A stretch of DNA of 64,000 nucleotides from Patescibacteria group bacterium (GCA_034659915.1 JAYEID010000002.1:2089-66088), one strand, 5' to 3'. Counted from the first letter of the stretch, positions 38,165-56,178 are shown. Program-made: numbers and translations. Notes: generated from the letters alone by a model not told the origin.

Positions 38165-38198
38165 GAAAGGACGATATGAAAGGACGGGTCTTGCGAGC
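38165..38198. repeat. family-C half-site (GAAAGGACGggtcttgcgagc with local 13-bp duplication), right-hand inverted terminus flanking RAYT-1
   Basis: gaaaggacgatatgaaaggacgggtcttgcgagc. Its reverse complement matches 38883-38903 (gctcgcaagacccgtcctt). Confidence 0.75.
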
Positions 38199-38219
38199 TA
38201 CTGTTTTTATAGGAAAAAG

Positions 38220-38882: not shown

Positions 38883-38918
38883 GCTCGCAAGACCCGTCCT
38901 TGCAAACGTCCTTGCAAA
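38883..38918. repeat. family-C half-site (gctcgcaagacccgtcctt plus duplicated cgtccttgcaa), left-hand inverted terminus flanking RAYT-1
   Basis: gctcgcaagacccgtccttgcaaacgtccttgcaa. Inverted relative to 38165-38198. Confidence 0.75.
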
Positions 38919-38921
38919 ATA

Positions 38922-41036
38922 CTATTCGCAGAGCGTTTTGCCGTTTGGGTATGTACTTTCTTTCCCGTAGATTTTGGTTATTGGGTGGTTAGCGATGAAG
39001 TATGTTTTTAGTTCTATGTAGCTATCCAGAGTTTTGTCTAGACTTTCGTAGTACCAGCTGATAGGAGCCTCGACTATAATTATATTATCTGCGTCTTTTT
39101 CAAAAACGTTTTCTTGGTCTGCAATTGGTTCTTTTCCAAGGTAAAAAGCGGGAATGCGAGCCTTCTCGTTGGTACTGTAGCTCCCTGTTAAACAACCGTT
39201 TTTGTAAAGCTTTGCTATCTTTTCCCAACCACGTCTGTGTGGGAAACCAAAGATTCCTTGGACTTTGTTGGCAAGATTTTTGTCAATACTAATCATTTCT
39301 CGACCAAAAACTTTTTTACTTCCCCACATATATTCGGGTCTTTTTTCGACGAAGATTTTGTGGTTGTAGGTTAGCGTTGTAGTAGTAATATAGATACCGA
39401 CTAATACTGTAATAAGTTGGACTGCCCGCCCAATTCCCCAGAACCAGGTTCTGGGACCGGTCTTAGAACCTGATTCTTTTCCTTGGCCAGCTCTAGACTT
39501 TGCGTTGAGAAGGGAAAAGGTTTTCGCAATCGTATAACCTGAAAGGATAAACAAGGGGATAAAGATAATATAAACATGGGTGCGGGGAGTTTTGTTGAAG
39601 AACAAGTAAAAACAAGAAGAAGCTAGAAACCAGGCAAAAAGGCTGGCTTTGATTTTATCAATTTTTGGGGTAAAGAAAAGAACGCCAAGGGTAATTAGGG
39701 TTAAAGTGTAAAACATTAAAGTGGATCCGCGCGGTTTGATCCATTGGGTAGAAAACCAGAAGGTGAAAATTAAGGTAACAGGTAATAGGTAATAGGTGAT
39801 AGGGATTAGTTTGCGGAAGGCGGAGAGCGGTGTGCGGAAAGCGGATGTATTTTTGAGAAGAGGGAATTGAGAATTGCGAATGATGAAATATAGAGAAAGG
39901 CAAGAAAGAATTACCAACGCAAAAATCATCTCTTTCGGCATATAGAATTTCATAAGAATTTTGCTATAAAGGGTGCGGGGCATGAAACCACTCCCTAGGA
40001 CTCTTCTTTGCAAATAGTTTGAGGTTTCTCCGGCGGTGGAGTTTAGAAAAAAGGGAACGTAGAAACTTGCTGTTAGAATTAGAAAAGGTGTGAAGAAGGC
40101 TAGGGCTTTCTTTTTCCAAAATCCAAGCTTTATAGAATTGCAGTCATTCTGAGGTCTCCCGGGCTGCTGGGAGGCCGAAGAATCCTCTGCTGTATGCTGC
40201 GTGCTTTGTTGTAGGTGGTCTTTAGTCGCGGGGGATTCTTCGTCGTTTGGAGACTCACTCCTCAGAATGACACGGGATATTAGATCTTTTCCGAAATAGA
40301 AGCAAATAAAGGCAAGGAAGGTTAGCGCGTCGTAGTGGGCGAGTACTGCAATTCCGAAGAGTAATCCGGCTAAACAAAAGTAGCCGCATTCCCCAGCCCC
40401 TGGGGCTGCAGTCAAAGAAGCCCCAGGGGCTTCTCCTGCGGCGGCCGGGGAATCGCCCGGCTTTGATTTTATATTTGCAATTCCAAACAACGATCCTGCT
40501 AGTGGAAGCTGCCCAATTCCCCAGAACCAGGTTCTGGGACCGGTCTTAGAACCTGGTTCTTTTCCTTGGCCAGCCTTTTTGTTCTCAACAGCAAGGAGAA
40601 ATAAGATAATTAAACCAAGTAACAACTGCACAAAGGCTTGGTATTGGGTAATCCTTGAAAAAGCAATGAACAGACCGTTAGTTCCTGCTAGTGCTGCACT
40701 AAGTATGCCTGCCCAATTGTTTTTTGTGAGCTTTCGTGTAACTTCGAAAAGTACATAGACAAAGGCAATACCAGCAAGGGCGTAAGGCAGGCGAATTATC
40801 CATTCTTCCCAGGTACCTGTTAAGTTATATGTCAACCAATTGATAACAAATTGTAAAGGGCCTTTATCGCGGCTCAGGAGGTATTGAATAAAGCTGCCCT
40901 GAAAGTAACGGAAGTCTAGAGTAAGAATTTCGTCACCTTGGTATTCCGCGTATCCTAAATCCTGCAACCGAACCCAGGCGGAGTAGGCGAGCGTGATGAT
41001 AAGTGTTATCTTTTGTGTTAGTTTTAGTTTTTTCAT
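38922..41036 (-). CDS. multi-pass membrane protein (GT-C-like) carrying two family-B and one family-A in-frame inserts
   Basis: TM-rich throughout. The peptide AGQGKESGSKTGPRTWFWGIG occurs twice, encoded by family-B elements at 39431-39490 and 40514-40573. AAAGEAPGASLTAAPGAGECG is encoded by a family-A element at 40384-40444. Confidence 0.5.
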   Translation of the reverse strand: MKKLKLTQKITLIITLAYSAWVRLQDLGYAEYQGDEILTLDFRYFQGSFIQYLLSRDKGPLQFVINWLTYNLTGTWEEWIIRLPYALAGIAFVYVLFEVTRKLTKNNWAGILSAALAGTNGLFIAFSRITQYQAFVQLLLGLIILFLLAVENKKAGQGKEPGSKTGPRTWFWGIGQLPLAGSLFGIANIKSKPGDSPAAAGEAPGASLTAAPGAGECGYFCLAGLLFGIAVLAHYDALTFLAFICFYFGKDLISRVILRSESPNDEESPATKDHLQQSTQHTAEDSSASQQPGRPQNDCNSIKLGFWKKKALAFFTPFLILTASFYVPFFLNSTAGETSNYLQRRVLGSGFMPRTLYSKILMKFYMPKEMIFALVILSCLSLYFIIRNSQFPLLKNTSAFRTPLSAFRKLIPITYYLLPVTLIFTFWFSTQWIKPRGSTLMFYTLTLITLGVLFFTPKIDKIKASLFAWFLASSCFYLFFNKTPRTHVYIIFIPLFILSGYTIAKTFSLLNAKSRAGQGKESGSKTGPRTWFWGIGRAVQLITVLVGIYITTTTLTYNHKIFVEKRPEYMWGSKKVFGREMISIDKNLANKVQGIFGFPHRRGWEKIAKLYKNGCLTGSYSTNEKARIPAFYLGKEPIADQENVFEKDADNIIIVEAPISWYYESLDKTLDSYIELKTYFIANHPITKIYGKESTYPNGKTLCE
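39431..39490. repeat. family-B palindromic element (CCAGGTTCTGGGACCGGTCTTAGAACCTG), in-frame in CDS 38922..41036
   Basis: caattccccagaaccaggttctgggaccggtcttagaacctgattcttttccttggccag. Copies at 40514-40573 (same gene) and 55030-55090 (plus-strand gene). Confidence 0.8.
40384..40444. repeat. family-A element in-frame in CDS 38922..41036
   Basis: ccgcattccccagcccctggggctgcagtcaaagaagccccaggggcttctcctgcggcgg. Confidence 0.85.
40514..40573. repeat. family-B element, second copy in same CDS
   Basis: caattccccagaaccaggttctgggaccggtcttagaacctggttcttttccttggccag. Confidence 0.8.
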
Positions 41037-41063
41037 TTTCTATTTCGAGTTAATTAAAAATCT

Positions 41064-41270
41064 CTTTTCCCTTTTCGAGCGATTCTTGGAGCGAGAAATC
41101 ACAGTAAGAGAATTTATTCCTATTTTGACTTAATGAGACTTTCCGCTTTGTTGGGATTCGTTCGAAATGGTCCATAGGGTTACTTACCTTTTCGAAGGAG
41201 TCCCGACTGAGGAATCACAATATAAGAAGATCCCTATTTTGATTTCTCCCCAGGCCTCGAAAAGGGAATT
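41064..41270. repeat. two tandem ~100-bp repeat units (TTTTCCCTTTTCGAGCGATTCTTGGAGCGAGAAATCACA...TTTATTCCTATTTTGATTTCTC) upstream-flanking GIY-YIG gene
   Basis: The units share a conserved TTTTCGAG...CTCGAAA inverted pair. Two further copies lie at 41590-41775. Confidence 0.7.
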
Positions 41271-41276
41271 GTAGAT

Positions 41277-41585
41277 TCAAGGTTCTTTCCAAGTTGTCTT
41301 AATTGTTTCATTCAGATGTTCTATTTGTTTTTTTCTTTCTTCTGACATATTGTCGATTAGATCTTCCTTCTTCTTTTGGCTATAGTCTTTGATTTGCCTT
41401 TCTCGTTTCAGGGCCTCTCTTTTAGTATCACACATTTCAAAATAAACTAATTTCAACGGTCTTCTTGTTTTGGTATAACTAGGGCCAAGGCCATTGTGGT
41501 GCTTCCAGAATCTTAACTTTAGATCGTTGGTCATCCCAGTATAATATCGTGCAGTTCTAAGTTTAAGTATGTAAATGAAAAACAT
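41277..41585 (-). CDS. GIY-YIG nuclease family protein (102 aa)
   Basis: FFIYILKLRTARYYTGMTNDLKLRFWKHHNG (GIY/YIG-type N-motif; R...H.N) plus a basic C-terminus. Confidence 0.7.
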   Translation of the reverse strand: MFFIYILKLRTARYYTGMTNDLKLRFWKHHNGLGPSYTKTRRPLKLVYFEMCDTKREALKRERQIKDYSQKKKEDLIDNMSEERKKQIEHLNETIKTTWKEP

Positions 41586-41589
41586 TTTA

Positions 41590-41775
41590 TTTCTTCCTTT
41601 TCGAGCGATTCTTGGAGCGAGAAATCACAATAAAAGGATTTATTCCTATTTTGATTTCTCAGAGTATTTCGAAATGGGTGATAGGTTTATTTCCCTTTTC
41701 GAGTGATTCTTAGAGCGAGAAATCACAAAAGAAAGATTTTTCCTATTTTGATTTCTCGGCAGACCTCGAAATGGA
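41590..41775. repeat. two further tandem copies of the ~100-bp repeat flanking the GIY-YIG gene
   Basis: ttccttttcgagcgattcttggagcgagaaatcacaataaaaggatttattcctattttgatttctc / tttcccttttcgagtgattcttagagcgagaaatcacaaaagaaagatttttcctattttgatttctc. Confidence 0.7.
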
Positions 41776-43167
41776 TCTGTTGCCCTGAAAAGTTTCTAGA
41801 TAAGTTTCTGCAACAGCTTCCCACCTATAACCCTTCGCCATTTCTTTCGCATTTTCTGCTAAGTTTCTGCGTAATTCTGCATTCTTTTCTAATCTTATCA
41901 TCTCTTCCGCGAGTTCCTCGGCGTTTTTAGTTTCGAAGAGAAGTGCGGTTTTTCCATCTTCAAGTATTTCGGCGAGGCCCCCAGTCTTAGAGGCAATTAT
42001 TGGTTTACCTGCTGCTGCTAACTCTAAGGCAACAATGCCGAAGGGTTCTCTGTACGAGGGGATAATTGTAAAGTTTGCGTTTTGTATGTATTGAAGCAGT
42101 TCGATCCCTGATTTGAATCCCACAAAGCTGATTTTTTCCTCTAGGTTTTTTACTTTTACTAATTTTTCTAATTCTTTGCGGCTGGTACCGTCGCCGACAA
42201 TAACTAAATTACTGTTCAACTCGTCTTCTACTTTTGCGTAGGCTTTGATTAAGGTATCCACACCTTTTTTTGGTACTAGACGGCCGAGGTAAAGAATGTA
42301 GGGGGAAAGACTCGCCAATTTTTGAGGGTCGGCTAACTTCTCAACCGCCGCACCTGCCTGCCGGCAAGGCAGGTTCCCTAGCCTCTGGGGCTGCGGAAAA
42401 GAAGCCCCAGGGGCTTCTCCTGCGGCGGCGCAGGCACCTACTTGGGCTAAGGGGCAGCCGGTGCAGGATGATTTTGTGGGTGATAAGTCCCGTCCTTTTT
42501 GTAAGGACGGGACTTTACTTTTTAAAAGGTCTCCGATTTGGAAAAATTTTTGGTCAACACCGTTAGCAATTATTTCAATTTTCTTCTCGGCTTGGGGAAA
42601 GTTATTGGTAAGGTCTTCTTTTATGTATTCGGAGTTAACAATAATTTTTCTTGCGCGGTTAATTAGTTTTTTTAGGAAGAACCGGTACCACAGCTTTTTT
42701 CCAAAAACTTGTAGATCATTGCCGTGGATGTTGAGGATTAGAGGTGCAGGGTTGGGTGAGAATAGGTCGCCGCATTCCTCAGCCCCAGGGGCTGGGTCCG
42801 CAGAAGCCCCTGGGGCTTCTCCTGCGGCTAACGCTAACCAGACATAGACCGAGGAATCGTCCGGAAAGTGGTAGTTGACAATGTCCGGGTTATATTTAGA
42901 AACAAGTCGAACGAGATTGGTTAGACCGGTTAGGAAACGAAAGGGGAACGCAAGGAAACCCAGAAGTGATCGCGGTAAGTTTAACCAGACTCGTTGAACA
43001 TCTATGCCGTCCACTTGAGCTTTTTTCTCTTTTGCCTTACCCATTTGGGAAGCAATAACTAATACTTCATGACCCTTTGCTTTAAATTCTTTTGCCAGAT
43101 TTAAAACAACATTTTCGACCCCTCCAGTAAAAGGAAAAAATCTGGAAGAAATTAAAAGTATTTTCAT
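41743..43167 (-). CDS. glycosyltransferase family 4 (GT-B) carrying two family-A inserts and one family-C insert
   Basis: MKILLISSRFFPFTGGVENVV N-terminus; C-terminal EPFGIVALELAAAGKPIIASKTGG (E-x7-E). Inserts are translated as LAAGEAPGASADPAPGAEECGDL (42769-42828), GACAAAGEAPGASFPQPQRLGNLPCRQAGAAV (42354-42428) and KVPSLQKGRDLSP (42485-42517). Confidence 0.8.
   Translation of the reverse strand: MKILLISSRFFPFTGGVENVVLNLAKEFKAKGHEVLVIASQMGKAKEKKAQVDGIDVQRVWLNLPRSLLGFLAFPFRFLTGLTNLVRLVSKYNPDIVNYHFPDDSSVYVWLALAAGEAPGASADPAPGAEECGDLFSPNPAPLILNIHGNDLQVFGKKLWYRFFLKKLINRARKIIVNSEYIKEDLTNNFPQAEKKIEIIANGVDQKFFQIGDLLKSKVPSLQKGRDLSPTKSSCTGCPLAQVGACAAAGEAPGASFPQPQRLGNLPCRQAGAAVEKLADPQKLASLSPYILYLGRLVPKKGVDTLIKAYAKVEDELNSNLVIVGDGTSRKELEKLVKVKNLEEKISFVGFKSGIELLQYIQNANFTIIPSYREPFGIVALELAAAGKPIIASKTGGLAEILEDGKTALLFETKNAEELAEEMIRLEKNAELRRNLAENAKEMAKGYRWEAVAETYLETFQGNRSISRSAEKSK
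42354..42428. repeat. composite family-D hairpin plus family-A element, in-frame in GT4 gene
   Basis: ctgcctgccggcaaggcaggttccctagcctctggggctgcggaaaagaagccccaggggcttctcctgcggcgg. Confidence 0.8.
42485..42517. repeat. family-C full hairpin (AAGTCCCGTCCTTtttgtAAGGACGGGACTT), in-frame in GT4 gene
   Basis: aagtcccgtcctttttgtaaggacgggacttta. Near-identical copies at 63758-63791, 55603-55642 and 38686-38722. Confidence 0.85.
42769..42828. repeat. family-A element in-frame in GT4 gene
   Basis: gccgcattcctcagccccaggggctgggtccgcagaagcccctggggcttctcctgcggc. Confidence 0.85.
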
Positions 43168-43203
43168 TAGGGTAAGAATAGCATATTTGGTTGGTAGTTC
43201 TAG

Positions 43204-45036
43204 TTGTGCTTTAATAGAGGTGTGAAGATAAAGAAGCTCTGGCGTGAAATTTCTATTTTTCTTTTCTCTGTTTTTTTGCGCTTGCCAAAGCTTGGCACGG
43301 GAATTTTCAACGCAGATGCTTTTCGTTGGAAAGCGCGTTCCTATAATTTTTGTAGTGGTTTGTTTGGTTTAGACTTTGCACAAACTGTCCAGTCTTCGCA
43401 TCCTGGGGTTACGCTGATGTGGATTGGAACTGTGGGGATAAAAGTGTACAACGCATTTAACAGTTTATTTCGCGGTTCTTTACCTAGCGGAGATCAGCAA
43501 GTATTTGAATTGCACTTTGTGCAGAAGTTTTTTGTTGTGTTGGTATTTGCCGCTCTTTTTAGTTTTGCTTTTTACCTTTTGCGGAGATTGACAAACACTA
43601 CCATTGCTTTTTTTGCTGTGCTGCTTTTAACTTTTGAACCTCATTTTTTGGCTCACACTAGGATTTTTCATCTTGATGGGCTACTTTCCATGTTTATGTT
43701 TGTTTCTGTGTTGGCACTCCTGTGCTATTTCGAGTTTTCGGGGAATCAAAATAGGGAGGTCAGCGGCGGTGATGAAGGCCAGCCAATTCCTCAACTCCGG
43801 AGGTTAAATCGAACTGCCGCATTCCCAAGCCCCAGGGGCTTCTGCGGACCTAGCCCCTGGGGCTTTCCATGCAGCGGTTTTCCCTTGCTAGTGTGTTTGA
43901 TGCTTTCCGCGGTGTTTGCTGGCCTGGCTTTGCTTACTAAAAGCACCGCCTTATTTCTTATTCCTTTTGTGGGTCTGTTTGTGTTATTGGAATTATTTTT
44001 AAAAAGGGTTCGTCCAGCCGCCTCTCTAATCTCCGAGGTTAAATCCGCAGAAACCTTGGAGGTTTTCCCGGCGGCCTCTTTGTGGAAGGAATATTTTTTG
44101 TCATTTGGGATTTGGATTTTGGTGCTTGCGGCAACTTTCACTGCTTTTTGGCCGGTAATGTGGGTGCAGCCTCTAAAAACTCTTCAACTTTATTATTCTG
44201 GTATTACTTTGGAAGGATTTGGCGGGCACGGAAACTACTTTTTTGGTCAACGGACTACAGATCCTGGACCCTTGTTTTATTTAATGAGCTTGTGGATTCG
44301 GTTGTCACCGTGGCTTTTGGTTCTGGTTGTTTATGAGGTTTTTTCTTGTACTGCAAAAACTCTAAGGTCTTTATGTCAAAAAGAAAAGTTGGGAGTTGTT
44401 TTAAAAAAGAAGGGTTTGACAGTGGCTTTTTCTCTTTTTGTCATTCTTTTTTACATTTTTATATCTGTTCCTTCCAAAAAGCTAGAAAGATATTCTTTGC
44501 CTTTGTACCCAGCCTTGGCTGTATTGGGTGGCGTTGGCCTGTATAATGCCAAGAAAATCTTGGTTGTTTGGCTGAAAAGGTTTGAACTCGGATTTTCAAA
44601 TCTCAAACAGGTTTTGATTTCTAGATTTAATGTAGTAGTGGCATTGTTGCTTTTTGTAGCCTTTATGGGTTCTACTCGAGGGTTGTTTCCGGATTATTTA
44701 GCTTACCGCTCGCCTTTGGCTGAGGGTTTGGAAGGTACTGTGGGTATAATACAGCCTGATTGGGTGTTTGGCGCTTCTCGAGTAGGTGAATTTTTTAATA
44801 GCTTGGAATTGGAAAAAACTCCTGTTGTTTATACTTTTAATCCTGGGCAGTTTCGACTATTTTTGCCTGGATATGTACGAGATACGCAAGATGTGGAAGG
44901 GCTGAGCACCGCAGACTTTATTATTCTTCCTGTTTGGTCGGAGCGTAATTTGGAAATAGATCCTGAGCTTTTTGATCTTGTTGAGGTGATAGAGGTTAAC
45001 AACACTCCTGTATATAATATTTACCAGGCGCGCTGA
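43204..45036 (+). CDS. GT-C-like membrane protein (HPGVTLMWIG paralog family) with a family-A insert read in an alternative frame
   Basis: FRWKARSYNF...HPGVTLMWIGTVG matches the 33572/35145 paralogs. The family-A element at 43817-43877 is translated here as RTAAFPSPRGFCGPSPWGFPCSG rather than the GEAPGAS-type peptide. Start codon is uncertain. Confidence 0.5.
   Translation: MCFNRGVKIKKLWREISIFLFSVFLRLPKLGTGIFNADAFRWKARSYNFCSGLFGLDFAQTVQSSHPGVTLMWIGTVGIKVYNAFNSLFRGSLPSGDQQVFELHFVQKFFVVLVFAALFSFAFYLLRRLTNTTIAFFAVLLLTFEPHFLAHTRIFHLDGLLSMFMFVSVLALLCYFEFSGNQNREVSGGDEGQPIPQLRRLNRTAAFPSPRGFCGPSPWGFPCSGFPLLVCLMLSAVFAGLALLTKSTALFLIPFVGLFVLLELFLKRVRPAASLISEVKSAETLEVFPAASLWKEYFLSFGIWILVLAATFTAFWPVMWVQPLKTLQLYYSGITLEGFGGHGNYFFGQRTTDPGPLFYLMSLWIRLSPWLLVLVVYEVFSCTAKTLRSLCQKEKLGVVLKKKGLTVAFSLFVILFYIFISVPSKKLERYSLPLYPALAVLGGVGLYNAKKILVVWLKRFELGFSNLKQVLISRFNVVVALLLFVAFMGSTRGLFPDYLAYRSPLAEGLEGTVGIIQPDWVFGASRVGEFFNSLELEKTPVVYTFNPGQFRLFLPGYVRDTQDVEGLSTADFIILPVWSERNLEIDPELFDLVEVIEVNNTPVYNIYQAR
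43817..43877. repeat. family-A element (variant arrangement) inside CDS 43204..45036
   Basis: ccgcattcccaagccccaggggcttctgcggacctagcccctggggctttccatgcagcgg. Confidence 0.8.
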
Positions 45037-45078
45037 GTACTTTTGGGGTGTAGCTACGAATAATAAGAATTTATTAAA

Positions 45079-47280
45079 ATGGATTTAAAATTATTTATTA
45101 GGAAAAATTTCTGGTTAATTTTGGTTTTGATTGCTGTTGGACTGCATTTGGCAGTGGCGCTCCGGTTAGCTTTTTTTTGGTACAACAATTACAATATTGG
45201 AAAGTTTGATTTGGGTAATGCTGCCCAGGTTGTTTATAACACACTTCAAGGTGACTTTTTTGTGTATACAAATGAATTTGGTGCGCAGATCAGCCGACTT
45301 TCAAACCACGCTGATTTTATCCTTCTCCTTTTTGTTCCTTTTTTTACTATTTTTAAGACTCCTTTGGTATTGGTTGTTGCTCAGTGCCTTGCTTTATCAA
45401 TAAGTGGGGTGGTTATTTATCTGCTTGCGCAGGAGTTTAATTTTTCCGAATTTGCTTCTTTTCTTTTTGCCGCTGCTTACTTGTTTAATGCAGATGTTGG
45501 TTATTTAGCTTTGGATGCTTTTCACGGTATAACTTTTGCTATTCCTTTTGTGCTGCTTAGTTTTTACTTCTTGGACAAGTACTCTAAGAGCCTGAAAAAG
45601 CGAGATTTAATTTGGTTTTTGCTCATGGCTTTTTTGGTGCTTATTTCTAAGGAGCAGACATCGCTTTTTATTGCTCTCTTGGGTTTGTACGCAGTATTTG
45701 TAAAGAAGCAAGCTAAATTGGGGTGGGGTTTATTTTCTGTGGGAGTGCTTTGGTTTGTTGGATACTTTTTTGTTGTTTCTCCTGCTTTTGGTGAGGCGCG
45801 GATTCAAAGTGCAGAAGTGTATATGCAACAGTTGGGGTTGGGAGCAGAATTGGGGGTAGATTTGCGGGAGAACCCTTTTATTTCTCGTTATGCGCACTTG
45901 GGGGATAGTTTGATTGATCTTGTTACTTTTCCTATTAGAAAGCCTTTTTTATTTCTTTCTGCAGCTTTTGATTGGAAGTATTTAAAAAGAATTTTGCTTC
46001 CTTGGGGATTTTTGCCGCTATTTGCTCCCGGTGCGCTTATTTTGGCTGTTCCCCAGTATTTGATAAATGTTCTCTCGCAGGGCGCTTTTATGACCCACCG
46101 CCACTATGGTGTTTTACATTATATTTCTTTAATCATTCCAATTGTAGCTTATGCTGCTGTTCTAGGTGCAGATAGAGTGAAAAAGTTATTACGGAAAGGT
46201 AGTTATAAGTTAGAATATTTGCCAGCTTTGGCAGTTTTTGTTTTTTCAGTTTTTGTGGCATGGAATGCAGAAAATCCTGTTGTGGTTAACCCAGTGGTAA
46301 TTGGTAGAAGCGATGTCTTGCTAGTGGTTAGGAAATGGGCAGAAGAGCAAGAATTGGAAAGGCTTGCTGCTCTGTTGGGTGGCACGAGTTCTGGTGACGG
46401 GGATCGGGAGTCTTCTGCGGCAAGTGATAAAGAACCTGTGACAGATAGCGGTGATCGGGATGAAGTTGGAGCTACTGAAGAACCTGCAAAGCAAGTATTA
46501 AAGCCGCGAAAAGCTACTAGTGTGTATATTCTAAACCCCCGTCATAGTGGTGGGTACGATTTGGTTTTTGAATATTTAAAGGATAAATCAGGATCCATAA
46601 GTGGGCCAAATTCTCTTGGGGCAAAGCTGGTATTTAGAGATAATTATAATTTTTTTCCTTTACGCTGGCGGGATTCCAAATACGCGGTTGTGGATCTTAG
46701 CGGTCCTCCTAAGTTTTCGGGAAGTAGTGAAAAAAGTATTTCTCAACTTTTGCGTAAACTGCTTTGGGATTTAGAGGAAAGCGATTCTTTTGGGGTTGGT
46801 CTTTCCGGAAATGGTTTGGTTGTATTTGAAAATGGTTTGTCAGCTAGTCTTTATCAAGAGCTTGAACCACGGGTAGAGGAGGATTATGGTTGGTTAAGTC
46901 GCGATATTGTTGTTCGTAATTTTTCTGCTCCGGAGGAAGTTATGAAGGGCGAGGAGTTTAGTTTTGAGCTAGGATGGAGATGTTCTTTTGCAGATGAAAC
47001 CAAGCCTTGTGGAAACTCTTTAGGATCTATGCCCTTTGTGGCTTTGGTTCCCAACGGAGAAAAATTTACTAGTTTTTACGATGCTGTGTACGGAATTTTC
47101 TTGCCACTTGGCAGGGATGTGCACTTATCTCGCTTTGAGCAAACATTAGAAATTCCGCAAAATGTTTCTCCGGGGATTTATAAAATTTGTCTTGGTTGGT
47201 ATGAACTTATTCCCACAGAAATGTCAGGAAATGTTAAGCTGAAGGACGCCGTAGAGTTAGGGCAGGTAATTGTGAAATAA
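45079..47280 (+). CDS. DUF2079-like multi-pass membrane protein with large C-terminal soluble domain
   Basis: N-terminal FDLGNAAQVVYNTLQGDFFVYTNEFG...SRLSNHADFILLLFVPFF resembles the DUF2079 family often found beside PMT-like GT-C genes. No inserts noticed. Confidence 0.45.
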   Translation: MDLKLFIRKNFWLILVLIAVGLHLAVALRLAFFWYNNYNIGKFDLGNAAQVVYNTLQGDFFVYTNEFGAQISRLSNHADFILLLFVPFFTIFKTPLVLVVAQCLALSISGVVIYLLAQEFNFSEFASFLFAAAYLFNADVGYLALDAFHGITFAIPFVLLSFYFLDKYSKSLKKRDLIWFLLMAFLVLISKEQTSLFIALLGLYAVFVKKQAKLGWGLFSVGVLWFVGYFFVVSPAFGEARIQSAEVYMQQLGLGAELGVDLRENPFISRYAHLGDSLIDLVTFPIRKPFLFLSAAFDWKYLKRILLPWGFLPLFAPGALILAVPQYLINVLSQGAFMTHRHYGVLHYISLIIPIVAYAAVLGADRVKKLLRKGSYKLEYLPALAVFVFSVFVAWNAENPVVVNPVVIGRSDVLLVVRKWAEEQELERLAALLGGTSSGDGDRESSAASDKEPVTDSGDRDEVGATEEPAKQVLKPRKATSVYILNPRHSGGYDLVFEYLKDKSGSISGPNSLGAKLVFRDNYNFFPLRWRDSKYAVVDLSGPPKFSGSSEKSISQLLRKLLWDLEESDSFGVGLSGNGLVVFENGLSASLYQELEPRVEEDYGWLSRDIVVRNFSAPEEVMKGEEFSFELGWRCSFADETKPCGNSLGSMPFVALVPNGEKFTSFYDAVYGIFLPLGRDVHLSRFEQTLEIPQNVSPGIYKICLGWYELIPTEMSGNVKLKDAVELGQVIVK

Positions 47281-47307
47281 GGATTTATTTTATTTTTTTC
47301 AAATGTT

Positions 47308-48813: not shown

Positions 48814-48914
48814 CTGGTTCTTGCCTATTTTACAGTTGGAGGTGCGCTTAGTTTATGTTATTCTTGTTTTGATGATTTCTGTAATAATACTTATTTATAA
48901 CCCCCTTCGCTAAA

Positions 48915-48935
48915 ACTGCCTGCCGGTAAGGCAGG
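48915..48935. repeat. family-D hairpin (CTGCCTGCCGGTAAGGCAGG), intergenic
   Basis: aaactgcctgccggtaaggcagggct; related copies nested in family-A elements at 3251-3270 and 42354-42374. Confidence 0.6.
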
Positions 48936-48974
48936 GCTATGGGGACATGTTCCGAGAGGAGTTAAATTTTTAAT

Positions 48975-49922: not shown

Positions 49923-49952
49923 TCGTATTAGTCCTATCGGACCTATCTTCCA

Positions 49953-50876
49953 ATGAAGAAAACAATTATAAAAGTAATAGTTAGTGTTGGGCTTTTTTTT
50001 CTGCTCTCTCGTTTGGTAGATTTTGGTGAGCTTTGGCAAACAATTGCTACTGCAAATCTTGCTTTTTTCCTTCTCGGTGCGGCTGTTGTTGCTTTCAACT
50101 ACTTTATTGGTGCTGTCCGTTGGAGTGTACTTCTTGAAGAGGACTCTCCTTCTTTTTTAACTCTTCTTAAGTTTTATTATCTAGGGGGATTTTTTAATAA
50201 TTTTATGCCTTCTAGTGTAGGAGGGGATGCGTATAAGATGTACCGCTTGGGTAAGGAGCTTGGAGACGGTGTTCAGGGCATAGCGGCTACTTTTATGGAT
50301 AGATTTGTGGGTCTTTTCGCACTTTTTTGCCTTTCTTCTTTTGGATTAATTAGTTTTTTGGGAATTAGAGGTTTGGGCGTTTTTCTTGCTTTTTTAGTTT
50401 TGGCTGCGATTGGTTTGTGGTTTTTGAAGTTTGCTTCTCCTTGGCATCCGAAAATCGCCGAGTTTCAAGGACTTATTTATGCTTATCAAAATAAGTATAG
50501 AGTTCTTTTGAAAGCTTTTTTGCTTTCTTTTGGGGTTCAGCTTTGTTCTGTAGGAGCGCAACTTTTAGCTTTTCGTGCTTTAGATCTTTACCCTCCTTTG
50601 GGCAAGGCATTTTTTGTATTGCCGCTTATTAATTTTATTGCCTTTCTTCCTATTTCTTTTAATGGTTTGGGAGTTCAGGATATTTTATTTTCGCGCGCCT
50701 TTCCTTTGCTAGGAGTTGCTGGTGAAAGCGCTGTGGCTGCTTCCCTTGTTTATCACGCAATGAGGTTTGTGATCTCCTTGGTAGGAGGTTTAATTTATGC
50801 GCTAGAAGCTTTTGGAAATGGCACCCCACCTCCAAAAGAAGTTGAGGAATCTGTTTCAACCTCCTCTCGAGTTTAA
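49953..50876 (+). CDS. UPF0104/LPG-synthase-TM 'flippase-like' membrane protein
   Basis: FFNNFMPSSVGGDAYKMYRL matches the GGDalR signature of the UPF0104 (MprF TM-domain-like) family commonly paired with GtrB-like GT2 enzymes. Confidence 0.6.
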   Translation: MKKTIIKVIVSVGLFFLLSRLVDFGELWQTIATANLAFFLLGAAVVAFNYFIGAVRWSVLLEEDSPSFLTLLKFYYLGGFFNNFMPSSVGGDAYKMYRLGKELGDGVQGIAATFMDRFVGLFALFCLSSFGLISFLGIRGLGVFLAFLVLAAIGLWFLKFASPWHPKIAEFQGLIYAYQNKYRVLLKAFLLSFGVQLCSVGAQLLAFRALDLYPPLGKAFFVLPLINFIAFLPISFNGLGVQDILFSRAFPLLGVAGESAVAASLVYHAMRFVISLVGGLIYALEAFGNGTPPPKEVEESVSTSSRV

Positions 50877-50898
50877 TTGGGTTAATTTTTTGTAGCTT

Positions 50899-52773
50899 AT
50901 GCTTAAGAAAATAAAAATAGACAGACTTCTTTTAGTCATTTTTGTTCTTGCTCTTATTCTTCGTCTTTTCGGTATCTGGCACGGTTGGCCGTTTATTTAT
51001 AATATAGATGAACCAGCTTTGGTTCGGAGTGCTATTGGGATTCGTTTTAATCCTAATCCTGGACATTTTGACTGGCCTCATTTGCATTTTTATCTTTCTT
51101 TTGGTGTTTTAGCTTTTTTTTACCTAGTTCGCGGTTTTTTTCAGATTGTGGGTTTGCAACTTCTTTTGATGCAGATAATCCCGTTCTTTTGGAAAGACCC
51201 CGCAATCTATTACTTGATTGTGCGTGTTTTTAATGCGCTTCTTGGTGCGCTGACTATTGTTCCTGTGTATCTTACAGGGAGGGTTTTGTTTGTAGGGGAG
51301 GAGGTTGTCGCAGGAGAAGCCCCTGGGGCTTCTGCAGACCCAGCCCCTGGGGCTGAGGAATGCGGCGGGGGAGATTTGGCGGGCCGTCAATCCAGCTCTC
51401 GCAAGGACGGGTCTTTCCTAGGCCGTTGGTTCGGTGATTTTAGTAATATAGCTTCTTTGCTTTCTGCTTTGGCGTTTGCGGTCTTTCCACTCCATGTAAG
51501 AGATTCTCACTTGGCAACAGTTGATGTTCCTATGGTGTTTTGGCTTGCTTGGTCCATGTATTTTGCGGCGAAAGTTTTAAAAAGTTCTGCTTGGCGCAAT
51601 TATATTTTTGCTGGAATATTTGCAGGGTTGGCTGCTTCAACTAAGTATAACGGTGTCTTTATTTTGTTAGTTATTGTTTTGGCACACTGTTTGCAAATTT
51701 GGTTAAAAAGCCAGGGAGAAGAAACAAAGTTTGTTGCGACTTTTTTCTCAAAGAAGCTTTTGAAAGTTTTTGTTTCTGGGCTCTCTGCTCTACTTGTTTT
51801 CTTTCTTGGTACTCCTTACATTCTTTTTGATTTTAAAACCTTTTGGTCTTATGAGTATGGGCGGGGTTTTCTTTGGTTGTTAGAAGAAACTGGTAGTGTT
51901 TCCAGCTGGGCGGAGTATTTTGCCAATTTTAAATATTTAAGTTCTTTACCTAAGGATCTTTCTTGGACCCTTTATTTAATAGTCCTTTTTTCAATTGGTG
52001 AGTTTTTATGTTTACTACTTAAAAAGATTATTAAGATAGAATTTAAATTACCTGTCAGAATGAATGTTTGCAAGGACGGGTCTTGCCAAAGTGCTTTTTC
52101 ATGGCAATTAGCGAGACTTGCTTTTTTGCTCTTCTTTCCTGTTTTTTATTGTTTATTTGTTATGCGGGGGAAGAAGTTTAATCCTCACTATTTCTTAGCG
52201 GTATACCCGTTTCTTGCATTGGTAGTGGGAAGATTTACAGCAAAAATCGGTCGTTTTGCTAGTTATTTATGGAATTCGGCAGAAGTACCAAGCACCAGAT
52301 CACAAAATCTAAATAAATCTCAAGTTTCAAAACGACAGATCAAAAATAGGGGCGGCGAAGGTGGGACATTTGGGATTTCCGCGCGTAGCGTACTCTTTGC
52401 ACTTATCTTGTTTGTTTTTGTAGTTCCTTTGTATCGCTCTTTTTACACTGGGTTGGTATATTCACGTGTAGATACGAGAACGCAAGCTAGTCAATGGGTA
52501 GGTGAAAATGTTTCGCTGGGATCTAGGGTTGCAATTGTAGGAACAGAAACTATTGAATTAACTGTAGAAGGTGTAAAGTATAAGACATACAAAAAGCTTA
52601 GTATTTTGGATAAGTTTGGGCAATACGATTTTGTGCTTGTTACTAATGAAAAACAAGATTATATGCTGGAAAAAATGGCTGATAATGGTTTTGAATTAGT
52701 TCAGGAGTATAGTAACGAAAAACCAACTCGCCGCGGTCCTTATGTTTGGATTTTTAAAAATATACAAGAGTGA
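50899..52773 (+). CDS. GT39/ArnT-PMT-like glycosyltransferase (GT-C) with family-A and family-C in-frame inserts
   Basis: YNIDEPALVRSAIG (DE loop-1 motif of ArnT/PMT enzymes) and many TM helices. The insert VVAGEAPGASADPAPGAEECGGGDLAGRQSSSRKDGSFLGRW is encoded by 51308-51368 plus 51399-51417. A second family-C-derived CKDGSC lies at 52069-52088. Confidence 0.6.
   Translation: MLKKIKIDRLLLVIFVLALILRLFGIWHGWPFIYNIDEPALVRSAIGIRFNPNPGHFDWPHLHFYLSFGVLAFFYLVRGFFQIVGLQLLLMQIIPFFWKDPAIYYLIVRVFNALLGALTIVPVYLTGRVLFVGEEVVAGEAPGASADPAPGAEECGGGDLAGRQSSSRKDGSFLGRWFGDFSNIASLLSALAFAVFPLHVRDSHLATVDVPMVFWLAWSMYFAAKVLKSSAWRNYIFAGIFAGLAASTKYNGVFILLVIVLAHCLQIWLKSQGEETKFVATFFSKKLLKVFVSGLSALLVFFLGTPYILFDFKTFWSYEYGRGFLWLLEETGSVSSWAEYFANFKYLSSLPKDLSWTLYLIVLFSIGEFLCLLLKKIIKIEFKLPVRMNVCKDGSCQSAFSWQLARLAFLLFFPVFYCLFVMRGKKFNPHYFLAVYPFLALVVGRFTAKIGRFASYLWNSAEVPSTRSQNLNKSQVSKRQIKNRGGEGGTFGISARSVLFALILFVFVVPLYRSFYTGLVYSRVDTRTQASQWVGENVSLGSRVAIVGTETIELTVEGVKYKTYKKLSILDKFGQYDFVLVTNEKQDYMLEKMADNGFELVQEYSNEKPTRRGPYVWIFKNIQE
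51308..51368. repeat. family-A element (canonical 'forward' copy) in-frame in GT39-like gene
   Basis: tcgcaggagaagcccctggggcttctgcagacccagcccctggggctgaggaatgcggcggg. Confidence 0.85.
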
Positions 52774-52842
52774 CCCCAAGTAAGTGCTCCACGTTTGTTT
52801 GAAGTTTGAGGAGGTGATTATCTTTGGTAAAATAGGATATAT

Positions 52843-54342
52843 ATGGATTTAAAAGACATCTTTTTTTCTAGAGCGTTTTTTGTTTTTGTAATTTCTTTTT
52901 CTATATTTTTCTTTTCCTGGTTTTTTGTTTGTAAAACGGGTATTAACGATACCGCTATTCAAAGTCACGATACATTGCCAGCATTATTTATACCTGCTTC
53001 GGTCAGTGTAGAGGGAAACCTCGATTTGGATGAGTACTTTGAGATGCTCATTTCTGAGCATCCTCATCCAGACGGGGAAAGTATTCCCTTTTATTTAAGA
53101 GTAGTTGATGGTCATTTTTATTCCGCTTTTCCTGTTATTACAGGATTACTTGCTATTCCTGTTTATTTTGTTCCTCTCCAACTAGGGTTACCAGTTACTT
53201 TTGAAACTGTAGCATTGCTTGGCCACATTTCCGCCTCTTTTATTGTTGCGCTATCTGCAGTGTTTATATATTTGATCTTTCGGCGGATGGCGGTAAGCGG
53301 AAGGCGACCTGTGATTCTTGCGTTGGTTTACGCATTAGGCACGTGCTCTTTTGCTCTTACTTCCCAGGGCTTGTGGCAGCATACTGCTAGTCAGCTTATG
53401 CTTTCTTTGGCTTTGTACTTCCTTGTTTTGGGATTTGATTCTCCAAATAAAGCACCCTGGTCGGGACTTTTTTTAAGCTTGGCAACTCTTGCTCGTCCAA
53501 CAGGAGCTGTGGCAGTTTTGTTGCTGTCTTTGTATTTTCTACTTCGTTACAGTTGGGTTAATTTTTTAAAATATGTTTCTCTTGGTCTTTTTCCTGTTGC
53601 TGTTTTTTTGGCTGTCCCTGGTATGCATAAAGGTGTTTTTGCTGGTTATGCTTCTCAAGTTGGTTCCAATTGGACAGCACCCTTTCCACAGGGGTTTTTA
53701 GGAGTTTGGTTTTCTCCAAGCAAAGGCGTGCTAATCTATTCGCCCGTTTTTCTGTTTTCGTTTGTGAGTGTATGGATTTTAGTCGCTGATGAGTTAGCTG
53801 ATAAAAATCCTAAATCCGAAACTCTAAATCCTAAACAAATACAAAATTCAAATGACAAAAATTCAAAACGTTTTGAAAATTTGAATTTAGGTAATTCGGA
53901 TTTGTTTAGGATTTCGGATTTCGTGCTTCGAATTTGCCGACGTATAGAAGCGCGGGGGAAACTTGTTTTATTTTACTTTGTGTTTCTGTGCGTGTTTGTC
54001 CATTCCTTTGTCGTCGGCAAGTGGTACCATTGGTATGGTGGTTGGGCTTTTGGATATCGGATGATGAGTGATATGATTCCTTTTCTTGCCTTTTTGTGGG
54101 TACCTTTTGTTAAATCTGAGTATTGGAATAAGTTAAAATATTGGTTTTACTTGGCAGCTGTATGGTCAGTGGGAATTCAGCTTGCAGGGATAGCTTTTTT
54201 TGATGGTGTTTGGCACAACTTGTTTGATGAGGGGCCTGATCAGCAGGCTTGGCTTTGGTCAGTCAAGAACAGCGAGATGCTTTATTACGTGCGACGGCTA
54301 ATTGCAAAACTGCAAGGAAAGCCAACCAGTTTGGTAAGATAA
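52843..54342 (+). CDS. multi-pass membrane protein with an internal long palindromic insertion
   Basis: TM-rich. Residues KNPKSETLNPKQIQNSNDKNSKRFENLNLGNSDLFRISDF are encoded by a ~125-bp inverted-repeat element at 53800-53925, which includes the perfect palindrome TTCAAAACGTTTTGAA. Confidence 0.45.
   Translation: MDLKDIFFSRAFFVFVISFSIFFFSWFFVCKTGINDTAIQSHDTLPALFIPASVSVEGNLDLDEYFEMLISEHPHPDGESIPFYLRVVDGHFYSAFPVITGLLAIPVYFVPLQLGLPVTFETVALLGHISASFIVALSAVFIYLIFRRMAVSGRRPVILALVYALGTCSFALTSQGLWQHTASQLMLSLALYFLVLGFDSPNKAPWSGLFLSLATLARPTGAVAVLLLSLYFLLRYSWVNFLKYVSLGLFPVAVFLAVPGMHKGVFAGYASQVGSNWTAPFPQGFLGVWFSPSKGVLIYSPVFLFSFVSVWILVADELADKNPKSETLNPKQIQNSNDKNSKRFENLNLGNSDLFRISDFVLRICRRIEARGKLVLFYFVFLCVFVHSFVVGKWYHWYGGWAFGYRMMSDMIPFLAFLWVPFVKSEYWNKLKYWFYLAAVWSVGIQLAGIAFFDGVWHNLFDEGPDQQAWLWSVKNSEMLYYVRRLIAKLQGKPTSLVR
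53800..53925. repeat. AT-rich long inverted repeat (AAATCCTAAATCCGAAA ... TTTAGGATTTCGGATTT around TTCAAAACGTTTTGAA) inserted in-frame in CDS 52843..54342
   Basis: Direct reading. Related CAAATTTCAAAT motifs occur at 54345-54400, 55540-55562 and 61522-61550. Confidence 0.65.
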
Positions 54343-54380
54343 GTTTTATGAAGTTCAAATTTCAAAATCCAAATATCAAA

Positions 54381-54775
54381 TGAATGACAGATGTCAAAAT
54401 TCAAAGAAGAGCTATTATGATCTTGAGGAGAGAACAGCTAAATTTGGAGAAGCTATTATTGATTTTGCTAGAAAGATTAAAGTGGAACAATAAATAGAGT
54501 GTTGGTTAGTCATGTGGTTAGAGCAGGAACGAGCATTGGGGCAAATTATATGGAGGCTGATGGTGCAGAGTCAAAAAAAGATTTCAAGCATAAAATAGCT
54601 TTGTGTAAGAAGGAAGCAAAGGAAACAAAGCATTGACTGAGAATGATTTCAAAAGCAGCGCCACGCTACTCTAAGCAATGTAAAGTTCTTTGGCAGGAGG
54701 CACAGGAATTAACTTTGATATTTTCAGCTATTTTGCTAGGTAAGAAGAAAAAGTAAGGGTTTTCTGTTTTGTAAT
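54381..54775 (+). pseudogene. degraded four-helix-bundle ('23S rRNA intervening-sequence protein') gene
   Basis: Fragments MNDRCQNSKKSYYDLEERTAKFGEAIIDFARKI (stop), then in another frame VRAGTSIGANYMEADGAESKKDFKHKIALCKKEAKETKH(TGA)LRMI...LLGKKKK. This matches the family signature GSSIGANIAEA...KDF..KL.IA.KEA.ET.YWL.L but is interrupted by a frameshift and an in-frame TGA. Confidence 0.5.
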
Positions 54776-54828
54776 TTGGGTTTTGACATTGAATTGACAT
54801 TTGAGCTTTTTAATTTGAAATTTTTCCA

Positions 54829-56178
54829 ATGAAAATTATTTTTCTTTCTAACCAACTCTTCGACTACCCTTTAAAGACCAACAAATGGCACGTGGCTACC
54901 CGGGTGGCTGAGCGGGGGCATCGAGTTCTTTTTATTGATCCTCCAATTCGTTTTCGCAAAGTAATAAAACAAATTTTCCAAGGGCGTTGGGGTTTGGGAA
55001 GGTTACTTTCAGGGTTTTACGCTCCGGTCGGCAATTCCCCAAAGCCAGGTTCTGGGACTGGTCTTAGAACCTGGCTTTTGTCCTTGCCGATCGCTACTTT
55101 AAAAGTCTTTACCCCTCTGACCTCTGTGCCTTCCGAATCACCAAACCTTACTCGTTTCAACGTTAACCGAATGAAAAGGAGGGTTCCGGAATTTTTTGAT
55201 GGCGAAGCTATCCTTTGGGTTTATAATCCAGCAATGATTGAGTATATTGAGAAGATACCACACAAGTTATTGGTCTATGATTGTGTGGATGATTATCCTT
55301 CTATGGCTAATTACCAGCGGCTGGGGCTTTCTGATGAGATTGCGAAGAAGGAGGAGCAGATTGCGAGCCGTGCTGACCTTATTTTTGCAACAACTAAAAA
55401 TTTGGCGGAGAAGCTCCGGCAGCGGAATGACAACGTTTATTACGTGGGAAATGCGGGAGACTATGCACGCTTTGCCCCTGCGGCTAAAGCGGAAATTATA
55501 ACCCGCCAGCCCGCTTCACCGAATCGAGGCGAGCCGGCGGACAAATTTCAAATTTCAAATGAAGGAGAAGAAAGAAGAACCGGCGAGGAAAAGTTGCCAA
55601 AGGAAAGTCCCGTCCTTGCGGCTCAAAGGACGGGATTTTCCGGAGTACCAAAACCAATTATCGGCTTTACCGGAGCAATTGACGATTACAAAGTGAACCT
55701 CCCTCTTCTTGTTCGAGTTGCTAAGGACCATCCGGAAAAATCTTTAGTTTTGGTAGGACCAACTGGAGTAGCGGGCGACCAGCCTGATCTTTGTGACCTT
55801 AAAGGACTTGAAAATGTTTATTTTATTGGCGAACGTCCGTATGAAGAAATGCCCGCGTTTTTTGCCCGGTTTGATGTTTACATTATTCCCTATAATCTAA
55901 ACGACTATACGGTAAAGGGTTGTTTTCCGGTTAAGTTTTTGGATGCTTTGGCGGCTGGATTGCCCACTGTGGTTACCAATCTCCCTGCCTACGAAGATTT
56001 TGCTGACGTTTCTTATATTGCTGGAGATGACGAGGAGTTTGGTAAGTTGATTCAAAAAGCATTAGACGAAAATTCCAAGGAGAAAGTAGAGAAGCGTATG
56101 CGCATTGCTCGTCAAAATTCATGGAACAATAAGGTGGAAAAAATGCTTCAGATTGTTACTTCAAAGCTTTCTTCGTAG
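54829..56178 (+). CDS. GT-B-fold glycosyltransferase (GT1/GT4-like) with family-B and family-C in-frame inserts
   Basis: C-terminal half ...LVLVGPTGVAGDQ...FDVYIIPYNLNDYTVKGCFPVKFLDALAAGLPTVVTNL is GT-B-like. GNSPKPGSGTGLRTWLLSLP comes from the family-B element at 55030-55090. PKESPVLAAQRTGFSG comes from the family-C hairpin at 55603-55642. Confidence 0.55.
   Translation: MKIIFLSNQLFDYPLKTNKWHVATRVAERGHRVLFIDPPIRFRKVIKQIFQGRWGLGRLLSGFYAPVGNSPKPGSGTGLRTWLLSLPIATLKVFTPLTSVPSESPNLTRFNVNRMKRRVPEFFDGEAILWVYNPAMIEYIEKIPHKLLVYDCVDDYPSMANYQRLGLSDEIAKKEEQIASRADLIFATTKNLAEKLRQRNDNVYYVGNAGDYARFAPAAKAEIITRQPASPNRGEPADKFQISNEGEERRTGEEKLPKESPVLAAQRTGFSGVPKPIIGFTGAIDDYKVNLPLLVRVAKDHPEKSLVLVGPTGVAGDQPDLCDLKGLENVYFIGERPYEEMPAFFARFDVYIIPYNLNDYTVKGCFPVKFLDALAAGLPTVVTNLPAYEDFADVSYIAGDDEEFGKLIQKALDENSKEKVEKRMRIARQNSWNNKVEKMLQIVTSKLSS
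55030..55090. repeat. family-B element in-frame in plus-strand GT gene
   Basis: gcaattccccaaagccaggttctgggactggtcttagaacctggcttttgtccttgccg. Same DNA orientation as the two copies that are translated on the minus strand in CDS 38922..41036. Confidence 0.8.
55603..55642. repeat. family-C full hairpin in-frame in GT gene
   Basis: gaaagtcccgtccttgcggctcaaaggacgggattttcc. Confidence 0.8.

Follow-up and report, generated by a model that had tools for sequence, protein, structure and literature searches.

In a 64,000-nucleotide stretch of DNA from a Patescibacteria group bacterium (GCA_034659915.1 JAYEID010000002.1:2089-66088), hereafter the window and numbered from its first letter, three copies of a near-palindromic repeat, termed family B, are inserted in frame in two glycosyltransferase genes and translated as part of the encoded proteins. 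We consider it probable (about 0.7) that family B is a selfish DNA repeat of 63-64 nt that forms a hairpin and is non-autonomous. It would belong to a lineage-specific superfamily in a genome of the Patescibacteria, or candidate phyla radiation (CPR), and its copies would be filtered by reading frame, by length and by the availability of permissive protein loops.

The three copies, each of 63-64 nt, share the plus DNA orientation and occupy positions 39428-39491 (copy 1), 40511-40574 (copy 2) and 55029-55092 (copy 3). A 30-nt core, CCAGGTTCTGGGACCGGTCTTAGAACCTGG, matches with at most one mismatch at 39444, 40527 and 55045, always on the plus strand, and none of 100 dinucleotide-preserving shuffles contained any match. 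Alignment and repeat finding extended the repeated unit to 63-64 nt; an earlier note on this DNA had located all three copies, but had drawn the unit slightly too short. Copies 1 and 2 are identical at 63 of 64 positions, and copy 3 is 80% identical to both. The first two lie in a minus-strand GT-C glycosyltransferase gene (38922..41036; Pfam PMT_2; 704 aa), which also carries one copy of a related palindrome, family A, and more palindromes besides. They are read from the opposite strand, in a common frame and orientation, as RAGQGKESGSKTGPRTWFWGIG (copy 1) and KAGQGKEPGSKTGPRTWFWGIG (copy 2). This duplicated peptide had been described as strictly identical, yet the two versions differ within the element by one residue (S/P; KEPGS versus KESGS), and copy 1 bears one stem mismatch (G->A). 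Copy 3 forms residues 68-87 of the 449-aa product of a GT-B glycosyltransferase gene (54829..56178; Glycos_transf_1), where it is read from the same strand as GNSPKPGSGTGLRTWLLSLP; its residence in a plus-strand gene, in the DNA orientation of copies 1 and 2, is thus as previously proposed. An independent Logan assembly of run SRR26901925 (L011) contains copy 3 together with the neighbouring family A and C copies, so the region is not an artefact of a single assembly.

Comparison with homologous proteins identifies the copies as insertions. For the GT-C protein, the comparison covered homologues P0002-P0012. The closest of these (P0002-P0006, 49-62% alignment identity), as well as more distant ones, lack both B peptides, and they also lack the family A peptide and a fourth long insert; their lengths are 543-657 aa, and 570-657 aa among the closest, against 704 aa in the window. 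The GT-B homologues are continuous across the copy 3 site and have no B peptide, while P0031 and P0032 hold other, unrelated inserts in the same loop. In AlphaFold models, the inserted peptides appear as low-confidence, predicted disordered loops. The GT-B model has a mean predicted local distance difference test (pLDDT) score of 88 and falls below 50 only at residues 69-85, the B insert, and at 227-256, where a further insert zone contains a palindrome of a different family, C. The GT-C model is weaker (mean pLDDT 69): residues 159-212, comprising B copy 2 and the family A peptide, score below 50, and B copy 1 connects the helices at 489-518 and 530-563.

In homologue P0004 (locus L005), both of the GT-C loops that hold family B in the window are occupied by other superfamily members, differing in frame or orientation. 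Orthology of these inserts with copies 1 and 2 was considered and rejected, because of this difference and because P0002 and P0003, which are closer homologues, are without them. The filling of the same loops by different members points to repeated colonisation, and the simplest reading is that a few permissive loops have been colonised again and again. Separately, positions 55599-55641 of the window, in the GT-B gene, are a family C palindrome, and approximately the same site of the orthologous gene at locus L002 (3027-3088) is a family A element whose reading frame is closed in the A consensus of the window. One permissive loop is shared by different families. The GT-C gene contains a further palindromic or repeated segment at 40176-40242 (CGAAGAATCCTCTGC...GCGGGGGATTCTTCG) and, at 39813-39842, a GCGGAAGGCGGAGAGC-type repeat that is also found at 4455 and 30008. 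These two segments underlie an insert of ~40 aa (SESPNDEES...QQPGRPQNDC) that is absent from the homologues; much of the extra length of this protein is repeat-derived.

As a single strand, family B folds into a basal stem of 4-6 bp, a 6x5 internal loop (TTCCCC opposite TTTCC), an upper stem of 17 bp and a 4-nt tip. Family A, which is much commoner than B, folds identically (for example CCGCATTCCCCAGCCCCTGGGGCTG...AAGCCCCAGGGGCTTCTCCTGCGG), and MAFFT places A in register with B, the loop motifs ATTCC and T.TCCT being invariant. The architecture of the superfamily comprises a basal stem of 4-6 bp, an asymmetric pyrimidine loop between the stems, conserved in sequence (5' side ATTCCCC, 3' side TYTCCT), an upper stem of 13-17 bp whose sequence is family-specific by way of compensatory changes, and a variable apex present in both orientations. 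In family B this central segment reads GGGACYGGTCTT in the window and L002 and AAGACCGGTCCC in L001; the corresponding pair in family A is GGGTCYGCAG and CTGCRGACC. In the A/B alignment, pairing holds in 94.7% of cells, and both sides have changed in 12 of 19 pairs; none of 500 shuffles reached the observed value, and shifted registers were only 32-56% paired.

A covariance model built from this alignment (R1) was used for a census of the window, which returned 15 superfamily members: ten of family A, the three of family B, and two variants (44017-44078 and 60780-60836). All except the variant at 60780-60836, which is intergenic, lie within genes and in frame (14 of 15). The model-defined lengths of family A, 39, 63 and 81 nt, are all multiples of three, and over the 64 kb plus 3.7 kb of the genome covered an A, B or C copy occurs about every 3 kb. 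Outside the window, a 96-nt member, its apex enclosing a further small hairpin, was found in frame in the gene of a peptide-chain release factor (PCRF and RF-1 domains; L001 5994-6089, open reading frame (ORF) 5757..6929). An insert of this kind is tolerated, then, even in an essential translation factor.

The earlier note held that an element open in at least two frames on opposite strands has just the property that a passive in-frame hitchhiker would need. The openness itself is borne out by six-frame translation of the consensus: four of the six frames are stop-free, and each closed frame is interrupted by a single stop in the asymmetric CTTAGAA part. As a distinguishing property it does not survive, however, since four or more open frames are also found in 25% of mononucleotide and 33% of palindrome-preserving shuffles of the 64-mer (56% GC). 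Furthermore, the window copies use frames +1 and -1, which mirror one another (P.PGSGTGLRTW versus EPGSKTGPRTW); because the palindrome creates this symmetry, openness on both strands is one property and not two independent ones. Beyond the window, the orthologous GT-B gene of L002 carries copy 3 at the matching site and in the matching frame (2449-2512), and a GT2 gene of L001 contains a B copy with an inverted apex, whose third frame yields GKEKSQVLGPVLEPGFGELPG. This third frame type is also used by a diverged variant in L005, in the gene for P0004. Family B is hence read in frames -1 (twice in the window), +1 (window and L002) and -2 (L001 and the L005 variant). The in-frame insertions, the homologues without inserts, the three combinations of frame and orientation and the low-confidence loops all speak for an in-frame hitchhiker, although 'passive' may be too strong a word in view of the DNA conservation described below.

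Frame use in family A is biased: eight of the ten window copies share one frame, giving AAGEAPGAS..APGAEECG, with a binomial estimate of ~4e-4 (against equal use of five open frames, corrected for five frames). Selective filtering of insertions, at the protein level and in favour of small, flexible residues, would leave such a bias, and so might an insertion preference. Family C palindromes are read in all three frames.

If family B is a selfish repeat, its copies would land in genes because the genome is ~88% coding. They would survive only where they lengthen the gene by a multiple of three, are read in a stop-free frame and place the extra 13-27 residues in a tolerant loop, and the survivors would be translated as a disordered loop. 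One DNA orientation could be read from either strand because the mirrored frames of a near-palindrome encode near-identical peptides. We infer that the copies move by transposition, and the most likely candidate for their mobiliser would be a transposase of the type associated with repetitive extragenic palindromes (REPs), namely a REP-associated tyrosine transposase (RAYT), a Y1 (HUH) enzyme that would act on the folded hairpin as single-stranded DNA.

Two genes of this type are present in the window. The GT-C gene is followed directly downstream by RAYT-1 (38220..38873, minus strand, 217 aa), a REP-associated-type Y1/HUH transposase. Its Pfam match is Y1_Tnp (2.3e-8), and against NCBIfam REP_Tyr_transpos it scores 68.3 bits, under the 80-bit cut-off; its best PDB match is the Escherichia coli TnpA-REP (4ER8), and the motifs HFH, YIHLNP and WSSY are present. 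Its relatives number more than 7,500, some of them labelled RayT, and the named ones belong to Woesebacteria, Curtissbacteria and Daviesbacteria. RAYT-1 is bracketed by inverted half-sites of family C, AAGACCCGTCCTT: a downstream REP on the minus strand (38180..38201, half-site 38180-38192; GTAG-CTCGC-AAGACCCGTCCTT) and an upstream one on the plus strand (38889..38901). The GTAG head precedes the downstream half-site, as it also does in L012. This arrangement fits the published definition of a RAYT unit (PMC2817692), and the order GT-C to RAYT, together with homologous flanking REPs, recurs in L003/L004 and L012.

The full family C palindromes are inverted doublets of the RAYT-1 half-site and in this respect resemble REPINs, the doublet form of REPs. 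All five full copies lie inside ORFs and in frame, in five window genes that include RAYT-1 itself. The doublet within RAYT-1 of its own flanking REP (38684-38727) gives KESPVLSARMGLS, and orthologues keep the palindrome at the same place (L012 1752-1795; P0183 and P0184; ERPALSERTGLS, ERPVLSSRTGLS); more distant RAYTs have other palindrome-like peptides at this site, and one homologue labelled RayT is without the segment. The internal doublet may be a conserved self-target or an autoregulatory site. The second gene, RAYT-2 (58184..58960, minus strand), is a Y1 transposase paralogue 37% identical to RAYT-1, matches Pfam Y1_Tnp at 2.2e-5 and lies 2 kb downstream of the GT-B gene. Palindromes of a family D, TATCTAGAGGCAGCCTCTAGATA, occupy its downstream (58152..58174) and upstream (59013..59035) flanks; these are two same-orientation copies of CAACCTTATCTAGAGGCAGCCTCTAGATAT, with no others in the window. 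The L002 orthologue of RAYT-2 (6375-7049) is flanked by a different palindrome, GATATTCAGGACCTGGGACTGAATAT (6254-6280 and 7095-7120). To judge from this comparison, the flanking hairpins turn over while the gene stays syntenic. The only direct hint that would tie family B to RAYT-1 is a post hoc one: in its inverted form the apex of B, AAGACCGGTCC, agrees with the core of REP-C, AAGACCCGTCC, at 10 of 11 positions (post hoc P ~0.003).

A joint reading of the repeats and the RAYT genes, which we regard as possible but doubtful, would make the superfamily 'intragenic REPINs': hairpins specified by structure, adapted to CPR hosts and mobilised as folded single-stranded DNA by domesticated RAYT-type Y1 transposases. 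Specificity would then come from the structure and the short conserved internal loop, and not from the overall sequence. The scarce intergenic space of ultra-small CPR genomes would have led to elements whose lengths are multiples of three (39, 63 and 81 nt) and which are largely stop-free. Elements of this kind would persist in essential and surface-glycosylation genes, continually creating and remodelling disordered loops, with the apex flipping in place between its two orientations.

The comparison of the window with L002, which is syntenic with positions 52.1-59.9 kb at ~70-75% nucleotide identity, bears on what maintains the hairpin. Copy 3 (61 nt) is 95% identical between the two, against 76% for the GT-B gene overall, and ranks first of 1170 sliding windows; all three substitutions fall in unpaired positions (P=0.015). 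Compensatory changes distinguish the subtype of copies 1 and 2 from that of copy 3, L001 and L002 at two stem pairs and in the basal stem. Both the compensatory changes and the confinement of substitutions to unpaired positions indicate that the stems are maintained, for which functional selection, selection for mobility, arm-to-arm correction and homogenisation from other copies are possible causes. The first of these would apply if the hairpin were a functional nucleic-acid element under selection, such as a protein-binding DNA cruciform, a single-strand hairpin or an mRNA structure that affects translation speed or stability. We consider this unlikely. It would account for copy 3 being the most conserved 61-nt window of its gene, for the compensatory stem changes and the internal-loop sequence that is invariant across families, and for the strong predicted RNA folds (-24 to -35 kcal/mol, z down to -6.9). 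However, the genes that hold the copies are unrelated, transcription crosses the element in either orientation and the frames differ; a stem-breaking change is already present in copy 1, homologues do without the element, and it matches no Rfam family. Repair or conversion, or homogenisation from active copies, can also keep the arms complementary without any function for the host.

Local duplication or ectopic gene conversion between nearby sequences, with no dedicated transposition, is less likely still. Copies 1 and 2, identical at all but one position, do lie only 1083 bp apart in the same gene, orientation and frame. However, their similarity ends sharply at the element ends and the flanks are unrelated; other copies lie 14.5 kb away and in unrelated genes of other genomes (GT2, release factor), and at least 15 dispersed superfamily members are present in 64 kb. 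A selected protein module, for instance a linker or a motif for interaction or sorting, whose duplication took place at the level of the protein would explain the recurrence of the same 21-22 residues in the GT-C protein and the strong preference of family A for the frame encoding a small, flexible AGEAPGA-type peptide, but it is largely refuted by three frames that yield unrelated peptides, and is highly improbable given also the predicted disorder, the homologues that lack the peptide, and conservation at the level of nucleotides and structure, third codon positions included. An assembly chimera, or cyanobacterial DNA with its own repeats misbinned as Patescibacteria, is suggested by Nostocales-like heptamer tandem repeats and 39% GC, and is scarcely credible beside the independent Logan assembly, the orthologous copy in L002, three separate bins labelled Patescibacteria or Saccharibacteria, and named RAYT-1 relatives from Woesebacteria, Curtissbacteria and Daviesbacteria. 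A cyanobacterial origin, with elements like Nezha or like the small dispersed repeats discussed below, was likewise rejected, since source labels and RAYT relatives point to CPR.

The B core was found at only two loci, L001 and L002, among species-representative genomes (GTDB), a collection that does not contain the source genome. A relaxed B core gave five matches in JGI metagenomes, all by chance and on unrelated contigs of high or low GC. In viral contigs (IMG/VR) no match to the A, B or C core was found, and a flank-based pattern gave 22 matches, about the number expected by chance, none convincing under R1 (best E=0.078). When the four open-frame B peptides were concatenated and compared with 5.8 billion proteins, 236 word-sharing candidates were returned and none scored, in a search that missed the window's own proteins too. 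Rfam 15 had no match to the whole window at the gathering threshold, and our literature search found no paper describing such elements in Patescibacteria. Because exact-match scans pass over diverged relatives, these counts may understate the breadth of the superfamily. The three related bins carry different labels, 'Patescibacteria group' and 'Candidatus Saccharibacteria', and the nearest named RAYT relatives are Microgenomates-type.

Several observations weigh against family B being a mobile selfish repeat. The flanks of 13 A/B copies contain no consistent target-site duplication or common target motif. The net inserted length of B would be 63 nt if the 64th shared base is coincidental. At neither RAYT gene of the window do A or B elements form the flanks, families C and D being found there instead, and no GTAG head was found on the B copies. 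With a coding density of ~88%, the proportion of superfamily members in genes does not differ significantly from random placement; what it does say is that, unlike classical REPs, these elements are not kept out of genes. Clear B copies in the public collections searched are few, at five plus the diverged variant. Finally, copy 3 is conserved far beyond its host gene, which would not be expected of a purely neutral passenger; the maintenance of the stems is the main fact for which that view does not account.

The ten family A copies of the window are distributed over genes of several kinds. Two are in frame in a radical-SAM ORF (2670..4283), one at 2981..3043 (plus), with the B-like architecture, and one of 81 nt at 3222..3302 (minus), in which a palindrome of family E is nested. 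In the GT-C gene, the A copy at 40383..40445 (plus) lies 66 nt from B copy 2 and reads AAGEAPGASLTAAPGAGECG. The GT4 ORF 41743..43167 holds a rearranged copy at 42368..42429 (plus), which adjoins another family E palindrome, and a further copy at 42769..42831 (plus). In ORF 43204..45036, the copy at 43816..43878 (plus) has an inverted ('flop') centre and is read in a frame unlike that of most A copies; the same ORF contains, in frame, the variant at 44017..44078 (plus), which has other stems on the same architecture. Further copies are found at 51304..51366 (minus) in a PMT-type ORF (50899..52773), at 61244..61282 (minus; a single hairpin of 39 nt) and 61787..61825 (minus; also 39 nt) in GT4 ORF 60902..62209, and at 63524..63586 (minus) in a GT1 gene that runs past the window end (62939..>64000). 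The intergenic variant at 60780..60836 (plus) has B-like flanks, CGCCAATTCCTC...TTTTTCCTTGGCG. The family E palindrome, GGACCTGCCTTGCCGGCAGGCAGGTC, occurs at 3246-3272, nested in an A element, and at 42350-42376, abutting the rearranged one, in frame both times; the elements therefore insert into each other.

Other repeats were noted in the window and related loci. A stand-alone GIY-YIG nuclease ORF of 102 aa (41277-41585), between the GT-C and GT4 genes, is surrounded by three 67-nt repeats (41065-41131, 41591-41657, 41689-41755) and three 42-nt repeats (41224-41265, 41636-41677, 41733-41774), and a related repeat is present in L001 (2784-2853); the ORF and its repeats may be a separate homing-type mobile unit. 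Degenerate 7-nt tandem repeats of the AATAAGG and ATACTAA types (2368-2619, 24177-24230, 27976-28147, 28503-28595, 28895-28973) are located mostly in short spacers around small ORFs and resemble the short tandemly repeated repetitive (STRR) sequences of cyanobacteria. ORF 29007..30950 (647 aa, no Pfam match) contains ~21-nt tandem repeats like GATTTACGCAGATTGATAACG at 29829-29994, followed at 29994-30051 by 14-nt repeats of the GCGGAATGCGGATGGC type. The 3' ends of ORFs 5508..7763 and 14849..16891 share ~250 nt at 74-75% identity (7500-7763 and 16628-16891, exactly 9128 nt apart); they encode paralogous C-terminal domains within the glycosylation locus. In L003, a related JGI contig, a perfect 58-nt tandem duplication (5884-5999) lies where two called genes join.

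Among known systems, the Rickettsia palindromic elements (RPEs) lead a comparable life: in the summary given in PMC10969869 of the work of Ogata et al. (2000, 2002), they are selfish repeats of ~100-150 bp that reside in frame in unrelated genes. The window shares with them many in-frame palindromes in unrelated ORFs of a small genome, peptides compatible with the protein fold, and the lack of a transposase of their own. The present elements are shorter (39-81 nt) and belong to another phylum, one element is demonstrably translated from both strands and in several frames, RAYT genes occur in the window, and a conserved loop and covarying stems are common to the families; they are set apart from the RPE families by description only.

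With the REP/REPIN-RAYT systems the elements share short, dispersed hairpins with compensatory stems (PMC2817692, PMC3116915, PMC5581495, PMC3479197). The RAYT-like genes are, moreover, vertically conserved in synteny (window, L003 and L012) with inverted REPs and a GTAG head, and the C doublet forms a hairpin as a REPIN does. REPs and REPINs are by definition almost always extragenic (PMC5581495), whereas the A/B and C copies described here are nearly all intragenic and translated. A RAYT gene is present, and inverted RAYT flanks are found for family C (window, L003 and L012) but not for family B, whose non-complementary, conserved internal loop also differs from a simple inverted REP doublet. 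REP systems are further marked by tens to hundreds of copies per genome, to be set beside the local density given above. Being neither extragenic nor RAYT-flanking, and having no GTAG head, family B is formally not a REP.

Bacterial MITEs (miniature transposable elements with inverted repeats), such as ERIC, BOX, Correia/NEMIS and QMITE1, sometimes fuse in frame with host ORFs (reviewed in PMC10969869). They, too, are small, non-autonomous, structured and dispersed, though in-frame intragenic residence is the rule here and not the exception. MITEs are further marked by target-site duplications and by terminal inverted repeats that match a parent insertion sequence (IS); the 4-6 bp basal stem of B could count as such a repeat. 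No parent IS with A- or B-type ends was seen in the window or the fetched loci, where both Y1 genes have other flanks. With neither a target-site duplication nor a parent IS found in these flanks and loci, we do not class family B as a MITE.

Similarly small mobile repeats are the small dispersed repeats (SDRs) of cyanobacteria, described by Elhai and colleagues in 2008 (cited in PMC3116915). These are reportedly 21-27 nt long, occur also inside genes and nested in each other, and include families that share a predicted secondary structure without sequence similarity; our comparison with them is by description and not by sequence, and we know of no RAYT link reported for SDRs. The attC sites of integrons are recombination hairpins of folded single-stranded DNA whose basal and upper stems are separated by an unpaired central spacer and whose apex is variable; as here, structure is conserved and sequence varies. 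As a structural analogy, the B ends (GCCCAAT...CTTGGGC) loosely resemble the RYYYAAC...GTTRRRY core sites. Identity with attC was rejected, since extrahelical bases and a cassette array are lacking, the upper stems are perfect and the copies are dispersed in ORFs in both orientations; Pfam scans of neighbouring ORFs showed no integrase. CRISPR repeats, tandem interspaced guide RNA (TIGR) arrays and introns were rejected on the dispersed intragenic placement, the perfect stems and the lack of arrays or partner genes.

Irrespective of their mobiliser, such elements inflate and diversify predicted proteins, the GT-C protein being ~50-130 residues longer than its homologues, and their inserts can lead homology searches, structure prediction and binning astray. 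If the RAYT link is true, it would provide the first candidate enzyme for an RPE-like phenomenon, would extend the REPIN-RAYT relation past extragenic space and beyond the Proteobacteria in which it was defined, and would point to a continuing supply of insertions in CPR proteins, whose inserts are known to be unusual. Without that link, the repeats still constitute a well-documented new family of in-frame selfish repeats. We class them as 'protein-coding selfish palindromes', in a host lineage for which, to our knowledge, these were previously undescribed. Protein-coding palindromes have been treated as a peculiarity of Rickettsia, and the same lifestyle is now encountered in the unrelated, reduced-genome Patescibacteria/CPR, where the locus of the palindromes also contains RAYT genes and cognate REPs. 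By analogy with these systems, family B would work like a Rickettsia palindromic element and look like a gene-dwelling relative of the REPINs.

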